A stretch of DNA of 4,651 nt, taken from a virus (taxonomy: Duplodnaviria > Heunggongvirae > Uroviricota > Caudoviricetes). Location of the stretch: the IMG/VR virus record IMGVR_UViG_2663763456_000003; one strand, 5' to 3'. The notes under the pieces are model-generated. The model worked only from the letters and a program-made list of their open reading frames with translations, ran no database searches and was not told the DNA's origin. Shown here in pieces: positions 1 through 4,651 of the stretch (positions are counted from its first letter, which is position 1; every line of letters starts with the position of its first letter). The translations under genes were made by a program, and so were the position numbers.

Positions 1-413
1 GCCTGTCATGGGCTGTTAATCATTACCGTGATAACGCCATTACCTACAAAGAGCAGCGCGACAAAAACGCAAGAGAACTGAAGCTGGCGAACGCAACCAT
101 TACTGACATGCAGCAGAGACAGCGTGATGTTAATGCACTCGATGCTAAATACACGAAGGAGTTAGCTGATGCGAAAGCTGAAAATGAAACTCTGCGCGCT
201 GATGTTGCCGCTGGTCGTCGTCGGTTGCACATCAAAGCAGTCTGTCAGTCAGTGCGTGAAGCCACCACCGCCTCCGGCGTGGATAATGCAACCAGCCCCC
301 GACTGGCAGACACCGCTGAACGGGATTATTTCACCCTCAGAGAGCGGCTGATGACGATGCAGATGCAACTGGAAGGGGCACAGGAGTATATCCGCACTCA
401 GTGCATTAAGTAG
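1..413 (+). CDS. Rz: Rz-like i-spanin (lysis, inner-membrane spanin subunit); 5' end lies upstream of the window
   Basis: Open frame from position 3 to TAG at 411-413. Translation ([29 protein letters not shown]...[70 protein letters not shown]...) is near-identical, from memory, to lambda Rz. No N-terminal Met in the window, so the gene is truncated by the window edge. Confidence 0.9.
169..351 (+). CDS. Rz1: Rz1-like o-spanin outer-membrane lipoprotein, nested in the +1 frame inside Rz
   Basis: ATG at 169 preceded by AAGGAG (155-160); 60 aa [60 protein letters not shown]. It has a signal peptide with lipobox (VVGC) and a proline-rich mature part, is the same length as lambda Rz1 and nearly the same sequence from memory, and is fully embedded in Rz as in lambda. 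Confidence 0.85.
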
Positions 414-455
414 CCTTTTTATCGTGGTAAACATTTCGCAGGGTATGAGGTATTT

Positions 456-806
456 ATGCCATCACTAATCCCACGTGCCTGCCGTAAGCGTGGATGTGCA
501 GGTACAACCACAGACAGTTCGGGTTACTGCGATAAACATCGCGGTGAAGGCTGGGTGCAGCACCAGCGCGGACTGAGCCGCCACCAGCGTGGCTATGGCT
601 CAAAATGGACGGTGATTCGTGCCCGTATTCTGAAGCGCGATAAAGGTCTGTGTCAGTTGTGTCTGCGTGTCGGTGTGGTGAGCGAGGCGAAAACCGTCGA
701 CCACATCATCCCGAAAGCGCATGGCGGAACAGACGCAGACAGCAACCTGCAGAGTCTGTGCTGGCCCTGCCATAAAGCGAAAACAGCGCGCGAACGAATC
801 CGGTGA
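456..806 (+). CDS. HNH endonuclease, phage packaging-associated (HK97 gp74-like)
   Basis: ATG 456 with GAGGT 9 nt upstream; 116 aa. N-terminal Cys cluster (C9, C14, C25), CxxC (CQLC) and CWPCH, with an HNH core (DHIIPKAHGG...N...CWPCHKAK) at about nt 699-773. It sits immediately upstream of the terminase small subunit, the conserved position of the HNH protein in HK97-like phages. Confidence 0.87.
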   Translation: MPSLIPRACRKRGCAGTTTDSSGYCDKHRGEGWVQHQRGLSRHQRGYGSKWTVIRARILKRDKGLCQLCLRVGVVSEAKTVDHIIPKAHGGTDADSNLQSLCWPCHKAKTARERIR

Positions 807-828
807 TAATTATTCTCACTTGTAGGGA

Positions 829-888
829 GGGGCGGGGCAAATCCCTGTGACCTGACGTCTTCCGGACTGCCCGCCCCATCGTTTTTTT
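829..888. other. GC-rich interrupted inverted repeat plus T7 tract in the HNH-terS intergenic region; candidate cos / terminase recognition region
   Basis: GGGGCGGGGCA (829-839) and TGCCCGCCCC (868-877) form a 10-bp stem with one bulged G, separated by 28 nt that include GTGACCTGACGTC (847-859, contains palindromic GACGTC), followed by ATCG and T7 (882-888). The location between HNH and terS is where cos sits in HK97-type genomes. The exact cleavage site cannot be determined from sequence alone. Confidence 0.4.
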
Positions 889-927
889 ATACCCGCGAAA
901 AATGAAATTTAACCAGGAGTGCCGCAT

Positions 928-1422
928 ATGGCTGGAACGGCGGGGCGTTCCGGGCGTCGCCCCAAGCCAACGGCGCGCAAGGCGCTGGCCGGAAACCCCG
1001 GCAAGCGAGCCCTGAACAAAGATGAACCTGTTTTTACGCCCATCAAAGGTGTTGAGCCACCAGAGTGGTTCGCTGAAGAAGATCTCCCTCTCGCCACGAT
1101 CATGTGGCAACTGACAACCAAAGAACTCTGCGGTCAGGGCCTGCTGTGCGTGACTGACCTGGCGGTACTTGAGCGGTGGTGCGTGGCCTATGAGTTCTGG
1201 CGACGTGCCGTGAAAAATATTGCCATACAGGGCAACACCATCACCGGTGCAATGGGCGGCAGGGTCAAAAATCCGGAGCTGACCGCCAAAAAAGAACAGG
1301 AGTCCGAGATGAGCAGCACGGGGGCAATGCTCGGACTCGACCCCAGCAGCCGCCAGCGTCTGATTGGCCTGGCGGGGCAGAAGAAAGCCACTAACCCGTT
1401 TCTGAAAATTATCGAATCATGA
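928..1422 (+). CDS. Terminase small subunit (P27 family-like, HK97 gp1-like)
   Basis: ATG 928 preceded by AGGAG (915-919, 8-nt spacer); the ORF track's GTG 919 start is 3 codons upstream in the same frame. About 164 aa, basic N-terminus ([29 protein letters not shown]...). Size, composition and position directly upstream of and overlapping the large terminase gene support the call. Stop TGA 1420-1422 overlaps the terL ATG (ATGA). Confidence 0.85.
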
Positions 1423-3152
1423 GCCGGAAATCTTACCCCAACGTAAATGCTGCAAATCAGTATGCCCGGGATGTCGTGCGCGGAAAGATTGTTGCCTGCC
1501 AGTTTGTGATTCAGGCCTGCCAGCGCCATCTTGATGACCTGATGGCGGAAAAAAGTAAGTCGTTTCGTTACCGCTTCGACAAGGACCTGGCTGAACGGGC
1601 CGCGAAATTTATTCAGCTGTTGCCGCACACCAAGGGGGAGTGGGCATTCAAACGGATGCCCATCACGCTGGAGCCGTGGCAGCTATTTGTGATCTGCTGT
1701 GCGTTTGGCTGGGTCAATAAAGGCACCCGGTTGCGCCGCTTCCGGGAGGTGTACACCGAAATCCCCCGTAAGAACGGCAAATCAGCAATCTCTGCCGGTG
1801 TTGCCCTGTATTGTTTTGCCTGTGATAACGAGTTTGGCGCGGAAGTGTATTCCGGTGCCACGACAGAGAAACAGGCGTGGGAAGTCTTTCGCCCGGCGCG
1901 ACTGATGTGTAAACGCACACCCATGCTGACGGAAGCGTTCGGGATTGAGGTTAACGCCTCAAACATGAACCGTCCGGAGGATGGCGCGCGGTTTGAACCG
2001 CTGATCGGCAACCCAGGTGATGGTTCATCACCCCACTGTGCCGTGGTTGATGAATATCACGAGCATGCCACCGATGCGCTTTATACCACAATGCTTACCG
2101 GGATGGGGGCGCGACGTCAGCCACTGATGTGGGCCATCACCACCGCCGGGTACAACATTGAGGGGCCGTGCTACGACAAGCGGCGGGAAGTCATCGAGAT
2201 GCTCAACGGCTCGGTGCCTAACGATGAACTGTTCGGGATCATCTATACCGTTGATGAAGGTGACGACTGGACCGGCCCGCAGGTGCTGGAAAAAGCCAAT
2301 CCAAATATTGGCGTGTCGGTTTATCGCGAATTTTTGTTAAGTCAGCAGCAGCGTGCGAAAAATAACGCCCGTCTGGCAAACGTCTTTAAAACAAAACACC
2401 TCAATATCTGGGTGTCGGCGCGTTCGGCGTATTTCAACTTGGTGAGCTGGCAGAGCTGCGAGGATAAATCACTGACCCTTGAGCAGTTCGAGGGGCAGCC
2501 GTGCATTCTGGCCTTTGACCTGGCGCGTAAGCTGGATATGAACAGCATGGCGCGACTTTATACCCGCGAGATTGACGGTAAAACGCATTACTACAGTGTG
2601 GCCCCGCGTTTCTGGGTACCGTATGACACGGTGTACAGCGTCGAGAAAAATGAAGATCGACGGACAGCCGAACGCTTTCAGAAATGGGTGGAAATGGGCG
2701 TTCTGACCGTTACCGATGGTGCGGAGGTGGATTATCGCTACATCCTCGAGGAGGCCAAAGCGGCGAACAAAATCAGCCCGGTCAGTGAGTCACCCATCGA
2801 CCCCTTCGGGGCGACCGGGTTGTCACATGACCTTGCTGATGAAGACCTGAATCCCGTCACTATCGTCCAGAACTTCACCAATATGTCCGATCCGATGAAA
2901 GAGCTGGAAGCAGCGATTGAATCGGGACGTTTTCATCATGACGGCAATCCCATCATGACCTGGTGTATCGGCAACGTGGTCGGCAAAAACATGCCGGGTA
3001 ACGATGATGTGGTGAAACCCGTCAAAGAGCAGGCGGAAAACAAAATCGATGGTGCAGTTGCGCTGATTATGGCGGTTGGCAGAGCCATGCTGTACGAGAA
3101 AGAAGACACGCTGTCTGACCACATTGAGTCCTACGGGATCCGCTCGCTTTAA
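1419..3152 (+). CDS. Terminase large subunit (ATPase + nuclease)
   Basis: 577-aa ORF translationally coupled to terS. Walker A-like P-loop IPRKNGKS (nt 1761-1784), Walker B-like hydrophobic stretch ending in DE (CAVVDE, nt 2037-2054), and a C-terminal region with acidic residues consistent with an RNase H-like nuclease ([11 protein letters not shown]...). Enterobacterial codon usage throughout. Confidence 0.93.
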
Positions 3153-3163
3153 CTGAGGTAATT

Positions 3164-3346
3164 ATGATCATGCTGATTCTCGCGCCTCTGGTGGGCGTGC
3201 TGGGTGCGCTTTTGCTGGCGTATGGTGCCTGGCTGATTTATCCCCCGGCGGGTTTTGTTGTTGCCGGGGCGCTGTGCCTGTTCTGGTCGTGGCTGGTGGC
3301 GCGATATCTCGACCGTACACGGCAGTCTGTCGGCGGAGGTAAATAG
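3164..3346 (+). CDS. Small hypothetical membrane protein (60 aa, two predicted TM helices), between terL and portal
   Basis: ATG 3164 with GAGGT (3155-3159) upstream; stop TAG 3344-3346. [60 protein letters not shown] has two hydrophobic segments separated by YPPAG and a basic C-tail. Codons are strongly enterobacterial (CTG-rich), unlike the overlapping alternative frame. No homolog recognised from memory. Confidence 0.5.
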
Positions 3347-4502
3347 TGTTCTTTTCGGGATTATTTCAACGAAAAAGCGATGTGCCGGTGACCACGCCAG
3401 CAGAACTGCTGATGCTATCGGGCTGTCATACGACACCTATACCGGAAAGCGGATCAGTAGCCAGCGGGCCATGCGCCTGACGGCGGTCTATTCTTGCGTC
3501 AGGGTGCTGGCAGAGTCTGTTGGTATGCTGCCCTGCAGTCTCTACAAAATCAGCGGTACCCTGAAAACACGGGCGGTGGATGAACGACTGCATAAGTTGG
3601 TTTCGGCAAAACCTAATGGCTACATGACACCGCAGGAATTCTGGGAGCTGGTTATTGTCTGCCTGTGTCTACGGGGGAATTTTTACGCCTACAAGGTAAA
3701 GGCACTGGGAGAAGTGGTGGAGCTTCTTCCGATAGATCCGGGCTGTGTGGAACCGAAGCTGAACAGCCAGTGGCAGCCGGTTTATCAGGTGACGTTTCCG
3801 GATGGTTCCGTGGATGTGTTGACCCAGAATGAAATCTGGCATGTGCGCACCCTGACGCTGGATGGACTTGTCGGGCTGAATCCCATTGCGTATGCGCGTG
3901 AGGCCATTTCACTGGCAGCGGCAACCGAGGAGCACGGTGCCAGGTTGTTTAGTAATGGTGCGGTGACATCCGGTGTGTTGCGTACGGAACAAAAGCTCAC
4001 GCCGGATGCTTACGAGCGTCTGAAGAAAGATTTTGAGGAGTGTCACACGGGGCTTGGCAATGCTCACCGCCCGATGATTCTGGAAATGGGGCTGGACTGG
4101 AAGTCGATGGCGCTGAACGCCGAGGACAGTCAGTTCCTGGAAACCCGCAAGTTTCAGCTGGAAGAAATCTGTCGTCTGTTCCGGGTGCCGTTGCACATGG
4201 TGCAGAACACCGATCGCGCCACCTTCAACAATATCGAAGAGCTGGGGCTGGGATTTATCAACTATTCACTGGTGCCGTATCTGACCCGCATCGAACAGCG
4301 GATCAACACCGGACTGGTACGAAAAAGTAAGCAGGGCGTTTATTACGCCAAATTTAACGCCGGGGCGTTACTGCGCGGGGATATGAAGTCCCGTTTTGAA
4401 GCCTACGCCACCGGGATCAACTGGGGAATTTACTCTTCCAATGACTGCCGCGACCTGGAAGATATGAATCCGCGTCCCGGTGGTGTAATGCCGATCAGTT
4501 AA
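3346..4502 (+). CDS. Portal protein, HK97 family; 5' end apparently frameshifted (start GTG 3346 in one frame, body from about 3423 to 4502 in another; uninterrupted from ATG 3471)
   Basis: The body (3471-4502; ...QRAMRLTAVYSCVRVLAESVGMLPCSLYK...) has the conserved N-proximal motif and length typical of HK97-family portals and sits directly after terL. GTG 3346 follows a GGAGG SD (3335-3339) by 6 nt and overlaps the upstream stop (TAGTG); it encodes a portal-like N-terminus MFFSGLFQRKSDVPVTTPAELLMLSG but runs into TGA at 3478-3480. The ORF-track start (TTG 3255) has no SD and lies in the poorly coding frame over 3255-3345. The N-terminal boundary is therefore uncertain. Confidence 0.8.
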
Positions 4503-4534
4503 GGATCAGTTGACCGATCCAGTGGCTGTGTAAG

Positions 4535-4569
4535 AATCCGGAAACGCTCACTTGTTTCCGGATTTTTTT
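4535..4569 (+). terminator. Rho-independent terminator-like hairpin downstream of portal
   Basis: Perfect 11-bp stem AATCCGGAAAC (4535-4545) / GTTTCCGGATT (4554-4564) with an 8-nt loop, followed by a T run (4563-4569, 7 T). The T run is on the + strand, matching the direction of the late operon. Confidence 0.6.
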
Positions 4570-4651
4570 ATGCACATTGGACAGGCTCTTGATCTGGTAT
4601 CCCGTTACGATTCTCTGCGTAACCCACTGACTTCTCTGGGGGATTACCTCG
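4570..4651 (+). CDS. Start of an unidentified ORF running off the window end (by synteny possibly the next head gene, e.g. prohead protease)
   Basis: ATG 4570 opens a frame through the window end (MHIGQALDLVSRYDSLRNPLTSLGDYL...) with enterobacterial codons (CTG, CGT, AAC, TAC). There is no clear SD (the start abuts the terminator T run) and only 27 codons are visible, so the call is weak. Confidence 0.3.
   Translation, partial: MHIGQALDLVSRYDSLRNPLTSLGDYL

Follow-up and report, generated by a model that had tools for sequence, protein, structure and literature searches.

A probable cos site of the SfI/SfV/phiP27 type between the HNH and small terminase genes of a defective lambdoid prophage

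The stretch of DNA analyzed here (4651 nt, hereafter the window) contains a GC-rich interrupted inverted repeat in the gap between an HNH endonuclease gene and a small terminase gene. The sequence-only reading of this locus had called the gap a cos region and proposed that the repeat, taken as one symmetric element, is the site where terminase nicks or binds the DNA. The locus therefore raises the question as to whether this gap is indeed a cos site, at which positions the two strands would be cut, and what the symmetry of the repeat contributes. The window as a whole is late-region DNA of a lambdoid prophage whose packaging module is of the HK97 style. Its features are the following.

1–413, plus strand: Rz spanin gene (PF03245 Phage_lysis, E = 2e-45), with an embedded Rz1 lipoprotein ORF at 169–351 (from the ORF list)
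456–806, plus strand: HNH endonuclease gene, 116 aa, intact (PF01844, E = 2e-16)
807–927: HNH–terS intergenic gap, 121 nt
928–1422, plus strand: terS, small terminase, 164 aa, Terminase_4/P27 family, intact (PF05119, E = 4e-20)
1419–3152, plus strand: terL, large terminase, 577 aa, intact, overlapping terS by 4 nt (ATGA) (PF03354 and PF20441)
3164–3346: YmfR-like ORF, 60 aa
3346–4485, plus strand: portal pseudogene (split ORF; alignment to the intact portal of an E. coli BE311 prophage)
4486–4651, plus strand: left end of an IS4 insertion that interrupts the portal gene (97% identical to IS4 copies found across thousands of E. coli genomes)

The Rz gene, the final lysis gene ahead of the packaging module, has its 5′ end beyond the window. 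The HNH protein carries an N-terminal zinc ribbon (CxxxxC...CxxH) and is 99% identical to L34 of phiP27, 78% identical to its SfIV counterpart, 38% identical to the HNH protein of phage Gamma (E = 1e-16), and 34% identical to HK97 gp74. The start codon of terS (ATG at 928) is preceded by a Shine–Dalgarno sequence (AGGAG, 914–918), and copies of this gene with 99–100% identity occur in 80 IMG/VR contigs. The encoded TerS is 48% identical to phiP27 TerS, and a 23-residue N-terminal arm is common to both proteins. TerL matches the structure of HK97 TerL (6Z6D) with E = 5e-26. Relative to the intact BE311 portal, the portal gene has lost one nucleotide near position 3408, which shifts the reading frame, and its 3′ end is cut at 4485/4486 by IS4. 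For the frameshift, the SfV portal gene was of no use as a reference, since this region is mosaic and the portal genes of SfV and the window have no DNA similarity. The prophage is defective: with a portal gene that is both frameshifted and interrupted, it is unable to form particles on its own. An exact search of species-representative genomes for the junction of portal and IS4 gave zero hits; to judge from the 98–100% identity to Sf phages and from the IS4 insertion, the host is probably Shigella or E. coli.

A megablast search with window positions 420–1450 against phage records provided the lead to the function of the gap, since several linear records break within the HNH–terS interval. 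Such breaks differ in what they mean. The record ends of SfV, SfIV, SfII, and ST64B were set arbitrarily by the depositors, according to the authors' own description (the SfV and SfIV records start at window position 861, the SfII record at about 803). We left these four out and counted only SfI, phiP27, HK97, Gamma, Dragolir, and possibly EPP-1 as evidence for DNA ends. The most direct evidence comes from SfI. When SfI virion DNA was sequenced by run-off from either side and the reads were set against the prophage sequence, a gap of 10 nt remained, 5′-TGCCCGCCCC-3′; the authors regard this gap as the phage's cos, "as postulated for SfV" (PMC3636060). Window positions 868–877 are identical to this gap. 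The SfI record starts at the equivalent of position 878 and its right end reads ...GGACTGCCCGCCCC, which places the break exactly at 877|878. The record of the Edwardsiella phage EPP-1 ends with ...TACTGCCCGCCTC, and its first position aligns with window position 878, so that it breaks at 877|878 as well. In the phiP27 record (AJ298298, 21806–21815), a misc_feature "cos-site" is placed on the homologous sequence CGCCCGCCCC; for phiP27, this GenBank feature is the sole basis. A literature search with the 10-mer strings returned only unrelated eukaryotic papers among the matches listed.

The cos-region call of the sequence-only reading is thus borne out by the identity to the SfI end, the homology to the phiP27 cos site, the intact HNH gene, the P27-family TerS, and the HK97-like TerL. 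Region 807–927 is very probably the cos site of a temperate phage of the SfI/SfV/phiP27 type with an HK97-style packaging module, now residing in a defective prophage. Carried over from the mapped homologous sites, the predicted cuts fall at 877|878 (top strand) and 867|868 (bottom strand). The run-off reads of SfI left a gap rather than an overlap; given how the method works, this points to recessed 5′ ends and therefore to 3′ overhangs. HK97 DNA has 10-nt 3′ overhangs, and because of these two observations we assign the same polarity to the ends predicted here. The elements of the site can be described as follows.

825–837, plus strand: G-box GGGAGGGGCGGGG, which holds the left arm of the repeat (829–836 as perfect core, 829–839 as first drawn)
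838–843, plus strand: CAAATC motif, adjoining the 3′ side of the G-box
844–864: spacer of variable sequence and fixed length, which includes GTGACCTGACGTC with the palindrome GACGTC
865–867: GAC directly 5′ of the cohesive end, with the predicted bottom-strand nick at 867|868 (AC^TG)
868–877, plus strand: cohesive end (cosN equivalent) TGCCCGCCCC, which is the right arm of the repeat, assigned by identity to the mapped SfI end and by homology to phiP27
882–888, plus strand: run of seven T (T7), +5 to +11 relative to the cut, within the A/T-rich segment that separates the cut from the candidate TerS site
891–903, plus strand: candidate TerS recognition site (cosB equivalent) ACCCGCGAAAAAT at +14 to +26, proposed by motif resemblance

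Which parts of the site are conserved was examined in two alignments. The first was built from the HNH–terS gaps of 263 IMG/VR loci, found with four TerS queries (the window type, the phiP27 type, the EPP-1 type, and HK97 gp1). Anchored on the G-rich box, these gaps yielded 59 distinct cos regions that align with zero gaps. Invariant among the 59 sequences are G830–832, AAATC at 839–843, GAC at 865–867, C871, and C874. The spacer differs in sequence: CCTGACGTC is swapped for CCCTGGCTG, CCGCGCGCC, and others, always with unchanged length. The palindrome GACGTC is not conserved, and phiP27-type and other variants have unrelated sequence of the same length at this position. In HK97 and in the window alike, the top-strand cut lies 39 nt from the A that opens AAATC, and in phiP27 and the Sf phages as well the G-box/CAAATC keeps a fixed distance to the cut. 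The second alignment is gap-free as well and compares eight phages across phyla; here, the AC at the boundary is invariant. A G-box at the matching distance from the cut is also found in HK97, Gamma, D3, and Dragolir. In the last three, the G-box is followed by TC and an A-run and lies 31–32 nt ahead of the cohesive end; in the window the G-box lies 31 nt before it. The Bacillus phage Gamma has GGGGCGGGTCGAAAAAC, 31 nt from the G-box to the end CGCCGCCCC, a 9-mer found at either end of its record. Pseudomonas phage D3 has GGGGCGGGTCAAAACC, 31 nt before the last 9 nt of its record, and Paenibacillus phage Dragolir has GGGGGAGGTTCAAAAATG, 32 nt ahead of the published 9-nt 3′ overhang CGACGGCCC.

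As a control for this spacing, we scanned species-representative genomes for GGGGCGGGTC-N(18–42)-GACYGCCSGCC. This small control gave at least 120 matches, dominated by high-GC genomes, and the gap lengths were flat across the 120 matches listed. Among these, only the matches in Citrobacter braakii and Mangrovibacter have HNH, terS, and terL nearby, and both show a gap of 26 nt, which is the spacing of the window. The right record ends of Serratia phage Niamh, Burkholderia phage vB_E173, Geobacillus phage PK3.5, and Mycobacterium phage Sparky lack the G-box/AC pattern. Therefore, either this architecture is not universal among HNH-carrying phages, or these four ends follow other conventions.

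The arms that first drew attention to the locus remain to be accounted for. The strings and positions given in the sequence-only reading are correct: GGGGCGGGGCA at 829–839, TGCCCGCCCC at 868–877, and a spacer of 28 nt at 840–867, within which GTGACCTGACGTC spans 847–859 with GACGTC at 854–859; the T7 run and the A/T-rich stretch ahead of the terS Shine–Dalgarno sequence are equally in place. Both arms are present as described, but their lengths are 11 and 10 nt, and pairing them requires a bulge of 1 nt (G837). The perfect inverted repeat is limited to 8 nt, GGGGCGGG at 829–836 with CCCGCCCC at 870–877, separated by 33 nt. A repeat of this length with a loop of at most 40 nt occurs in 6.7% of random 121-mers generated by a first-order Markov model with the same composition (P = 0.067). 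Across the whole window there are seven overlapping 8-mer inverted-repeat hits in three places, against an expectation of 3.0 ± 2.2. The RNA fold of the region (−27 kcal/mol) has a z score of −1.09, with 31 of 200 shuffled sequences equally stable, and the DNA fold has a z score of −1.69. The inverted repeat alone is not beyond chance, and the significance of the region lies in homology and conservation rather than in symmetry.

Could the two arms nevertheless form a functional symmetric unit, either as inverted sites for one dimeric protein, 41 bp apart from center to center (about four helical turns), or as a hairpin or cruciform recognized by the terminase? The perfect 8-bp repeat is present in the window and in most loci of the Sf/phiP27 type, phage Gamma has a 7-nt version (GGGGCGG/CCGCCCC), and in the alignment of 59 sequences 71% of the cells pair over the ten drawn pairs, compared with 39–51% in slid registers. 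The in-register value is inflated, however, because the structure was derived from one of the aligned sequences. HK97, with the same architecture and spacing, retains only 4 of the 10 pairs. Loci L024 and L072 (GGGGGAGG) as well as L102 change the left arm without compensation in the right arm, and L064, L093, and L097 change the right arm (CCCGCCTC) without compensation in the left; the only pair altered on both sides ("compensated") reflects a single change at family level that separates the Sf/phiP27 group from the HK97 group. Furthermore, the repeat is within chance for its G-rich/C-rich context, as the statistics above indicate. A symmetric unit of either form is improbable, although degenerate symmetric recognition may occur. 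The idea of the symmetric element as a single nicking or binding unit thus finds no support. Its nicking component does hold for the right arm, which is the cohesive end, whereas the left arm belongs to the separately conserved G-box/CAAATC, and the pairing between the two is not kept in relatives. The alignments indicate that each arm is conserved for a reason of its own and that complementarity is not itself a functional feature; the locus looks like an inverted repeat since one strand carries both the G-rich box and the C-rich sticky end.

Two further explanations of the gap were weighed. The GC-rich stem and the T7 run could constitute a Rho-independent terminator after the lysis and HNH genes, as a stem of −27 kcal/mol can form in the RNA and the T7 run follows it. 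This stem encloses 33 nt, however, and the T run starts 4 nt past it; the fold energy is ordinary for the composition, the consensus terminator scan makes no call, and no Rfam family matches positions 700–1000 at E ≤ 1. In phiP27 and EPP-1 the T run is shorter and displaced (T5 at +7 to +11, also in Mangrovibacter), and it is absent at that position in HK97. Late transcripts of lambdoid phages normally continue across cos into the head genes. We give the terminator next to no credence, and the negative scan and the unremarkable fold agree with the judgment of the sequence-only reading that a simple intrinsic terminator is less likely. The other explanation holds that the site is an inert relic, a cos that no longer works in a decaying prophage. 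The 1-nt deletion and the IS4 insertion in the portal gene, which make particles impossible, speak for it. Against it stand the undamaged state of the site, with 861–930 being 100% identical to the left end of SfV and SfIV, the intact HNH, terS, and terL genes, and the G837 variant of the left flank, which recurs unchanged in several IMG/VR contigs with terS of both the Sf type and the phiP27 type. In addition, the site could still be cleaved by a phage of the Sf type that resides in the same cell and has an identical sticky end. We consider the relic explanation rather unlikely; it concerns the present use of the site, not its identity, and is compatible with the cos assignment.

Returning to the cos site, its closest relatives are the Shigella flexneri serotype-converting phages SfI, SfV, SfII, and SfIV, with which it shares an identical TGCCCGCCCC, 100% identity from 861 to terS, the position between HNH and terS, and a terS gene of 98–100% identity. 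Unlike the Sf phages, the window has a phiP27-like left flank and a G-box that ends with G (837) instead of T, and its copy sits in a prophage with a broken portal gene. With the Stx2e phage phiP27, the window has a near-identical HNH gene, the G-box/CAAATC, the GAC, and CCCGCCCC in common, whereas the first base of the phiP27 sticky end is C (T in the window), the spacer differs, and TerS is the more distant protein described above. DNA homology to phiP27 extends from HNH across cos as far as position 900. The cos site thus lies on a mosaic boundary, with a phiP27-like left flank (HNH, 99%) and an Sf-like right flank (terS, 98–100%).

The comparison with the cos regions of HK97 and its relatives, which the sequence-only reading had suggested, revealed the same layout with the 39-nt spacing and the GAC ahead of the end. 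In HK97, the HNH gene is followed by a G-run, ATCAAATC, GAC, and the 10-nt C-rich end CGCCGCCAAA; TCAAATC, as well as ACCCG and an A/T tract downstream, are shared with the window, and TerL and HNH are homologous at the levels given above. In contrast to the window, HK97 has the sticky end CGCCGCCAAA, a plain G-run as its G-box, a TerS without detectable similarity, and an HNH protein (gp74) without the N-terminal zinc ribbon. Phage Gamma, which encodes the HNH nickase N.phiGamma, resembles the window with GGGGCGGGTC 31 nt before its C-rich end CGCCGCCCC, a TAC|CG boundary, an HNH protein of 38% identity that includes the zinc ribbon, and a TerS that its record annotates as TIGR01558 (P27 family). 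It differs in having an end of 9 instead of 10 nt, a Gram-positive host, and a TerS that is dissimilar by BLASTP, and the boundary of the window is AC^TG. The position in the HNH–terS gap, the match to a mapped end, the flanking architecture, and the presence of genes for TerL, TerS, and HNH all point the same way; on its sequence features, the element is a member of the HK97-type 3′-overhang cos family, in the SfI/SfV/phiP27 subgroup.

Other packaging sites fit less well. The cos of phage lambda consists of a nicking site, a TerS-binding region downstream, and an upstream element that is passed last during packaging, and cosQ, cosN, and cosB resemble the site described here in this functional logic only. 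Lambda has 12-nt 5′ overhangs, no HNH partner, the Nu1/gpA terminase, and a dependence on IHF, and its cos shows no sequence relationship to the window. We excluded a lambda-type cos on account of the Terminase_4 TerS, the HK97-like TerL, and relatives with 3′ overhangs. Likewise, a pac or headful site was rejected, as the DNA of close relatives has fixed ends and gives precise restriction fragments, and TerL is of the HK97 cos type. Three smaller ideas were also set aside. Two-fold symmetry about the center of the sticky end, as in lambda cosN, holds at 4 of 9 positions and is unconvincing; the idea that the 3′ overhang folds back onto the G-box or pairs with it as a triplex was dropped for want of supporting evidence; and by eye there is no IHF site in the spacer, with a weak resemblance only in HK97.

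How might this site be cut? The terminase would cut the concatemer such that TGCCCGCCCC (868–877) is left as a single-stranded 3′ end of 10 nt. The HNH protein, whose gene lies immediately upstream, would nick the bottom strand at GAC^TG (867|868), and TerL, the homologue of HK97 gp2, would nick the top strand 10 nt downstream (877|878), with packaging running rightwards from terS. We infer this division of labor between HNH and TerL from related systems. In HK97, cos cleavage requires the HNH protein gp74, which stimulates the reaction, and the HK97 authors suggested a possible split in which TerL cuts one strand and gp74 the other. Xu and Gupta found that cos-adjacent HNH nickases of Bacillus phages cut CG|GT, which corresponds to AC^CG on the other strand, and left the biological role of this nicking open (PMC3592412). 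The boundaries of the cohesive ends can be read against this specificity: Gamma has TAC|CGCCGCCCC (TAC|CG), HK97 and phiP27 have GAC|CG, and Dragolir has AAC|CG, while AC|TG is found in the window (GAC|TG), SfI, and EPP-1. The AC^CG specificity of the nickases, the Gamma boundary, and the 38% identity of the HNH protein to the Gamma enzyme with a common zinc ribbon argue for an HNH nick at the invariant AC^YG step. Arguing against it, HK97 gp74 and the lactococcal HrdP are nonspecific nucleases in vitro, D3 does not have AC at the boundary if its 9-nt record end is taken as the cohesive end, and the window has AC^TG instead of the preferred AC^CG. On balance, we give nearly even chances to the proposal that HNH makes the bottom-strand nick at this step.

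The G-box/CAAATC at 825–843 would, in this mechanism, be a fixed-distance positioning site for the nuclease complex. From the conservation of these elements and of their distance to the cut, it is possible, if short of probable, that they either position this complex or act at termination in the manner of lambda cosQ. Downstream of the cut, the P27-family TerS would bind at about ACCCGCGAAAAAT, much as HK97 TerS binds its experimentally mapped site, CTAACCCGATTTTTT at +15 to +29. The candidate resembles the HK97 site ACCCGATTTTTTT; its CCCGCGAAA is kept in phiP27 despite a terS that is only 48% identical, counterparts are found in EPP-1 (GACCGCGAAAAAT) and Gamma (CGCAGAAAAAT), and the motif is kept in Mangrovibacter too. 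BLASTP of the window TerS against HK97 gp1 and Gamma TerS gave nothing, and a comparison with solved structures gave zero hits at E ≤ 10. Because this TerS is not detectably similar to HK97 gp1, the site is proposed by motif resemblance and analogy, and we assign TerS binding to 891–903 tentatively.

The SfI/SfV/phiP27 cos site has been published, and its identification here contributes nothing new. Novelty might lie solely in the cross-phylum G-box and AC^YG pattern together with its link to HNH specificity. No statement of a link between this pattern and the nick specificity of HNH proteins was found in the literature searched, a set that excludes Kala 2014 and Quiles-Puchalt 2014. The pattern could reflect an ancient bipartite cos signal common to HNH-dependent phages of Gram-negative and Gram-positive hosts, in which a G-box followed by TC and an A-run precedes AC^YG by about 31 nt; HNH would be a sequence-selective nickase of the bottom strand, TerL would cut the top strand 9–10 nt downstream, and the G-box would position the complex. 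We regard this generalization as conceivable but lean against it. If it is true, the "inverted repeat" of the window is the visible trace of this signal, and the signal would account for the second nuclease that these terminases require as well as for their 3′ overhangs.

For the annotation of this prophage family, the analysis places the predicted genome ends at 867|868 and 877|878. It also illustrates that a cos site can be located by a sequence-only reading from gene order and a GC-rich motif. As a comparative by-product that is possibly useful for work on HK97-type packaging, the fixed-distance G-box and the AC^YG step recur from enterobacterial phages to those of Bacillus and Paenibacillus, and together they make a testable proposal as to which nuclease cuts which strand. 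Finally, an intact cos site and intact terminase genes lie beside a broken portal gene, and therefore a co-resident phage of the Sf type could still cut the chromosome at this position.

The arrangement of the cohesive end recurs in phages of distant hosts. In Bacillus, Paenibacillus, Pseudomonas and enterobacterial phages, the G-box (the G-rich motif upstream of the sticky end) is followed by TC and a run of A, and lies 31–32 nt before a C-rich 3′ cohesive end of 9–10 nt. The records compared were those of Bacillus phage Gamma (L274, positions 1010–1054, together with L275, positions 1–30) and the right record ends of Pseudomonas phage D3 (L280) and Paenibacillus phage Dragolir (L279). The dinucleotide AC stands immediately 5′ of the cohesive end in all these phages, with the exception of D3 if its end is taken as the last 9 nt of the record. 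This position agrees with the nick site AC^CG published for the HNH enzyme of phage Gamma. A few IMG/VR copies (L143, positions 597–656, L121 and L122) carry a sticky end with one C fewer, TGCCCGCCC, or T6 in place of T7 after the sticky end. These variants may be true homopolymer length differences or assembly errors.

The window also contains the following features:

1–413: Rz spanin gene, entering from the left window edge
3164–3346: ORF of 60 aa with two hydrophobic stretches, between terL and the portal gene
4486–4651: left end of an IS4 element (TAATGCCGATCAGTTAAGG...), inserted in the portal gene

Inside Rz, an ORF in the +1 frame (169–351) encodes a protein with the lipobox LVVVGC and a tail rich in proline, as is typical of Rz1. 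In related E. coli prophages (compared over L283, positions 742–1268), about 810 bp of extra DNA, including the iss/bor serum-survival lipoprotein gene, separate Rz from HNH. In contrast to these prophages, the window contains no such insert (414–455), and HNH follows almost directly after Rz.

Downstream, the stop codon of terS overlaps the start codon of terL in the sequence ATGA (1419–1422), which suggests that the two terminase subunits are translationally coupled. A second short inverted repeat within terS (1300–1338; GAGTCCGAG / CTCGGACTC, with a loop of 21 nt) is probably due to chance, since the window holds about the expected number of such repeats. The 60-aa ORF has no match in Pfam; its equivalent in a related E. 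coli prophage is annotated as YmfR in RefSeq.

The portal gene (3346–4485) is a pseudogene. Comparison with the intact copy of an E. coli prophage revealed a 1-nt deletion near position 3408 (GCAGAACT-GCTG in the window versus GCAGAGCTGGCGG), which breaks the reading frame into ORFs 3346–3480 and 3255–4502. The 3′ end of the gene has also been removed by an insertion. An 11-nt inverted repeat with a T run (4535–4564) is internal to the IS4 end and precedes the start codon of the transposase (ATG, 4571). The portal/IS4 junction had no exact match among the species-representative genomes.

Finally, the cos site (within 456–1422) sits on a mosaic boundary. The phiP27-like side comprises HNH (99% identical) and the G-box, and DNA homology to phiP27 stops at position 900. 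From the sticky end on, the sequence resembles that of the Sf phages, including terS (98–100%). IMG/VR also contains hybrids in both directions; L113 and L150 are examples.
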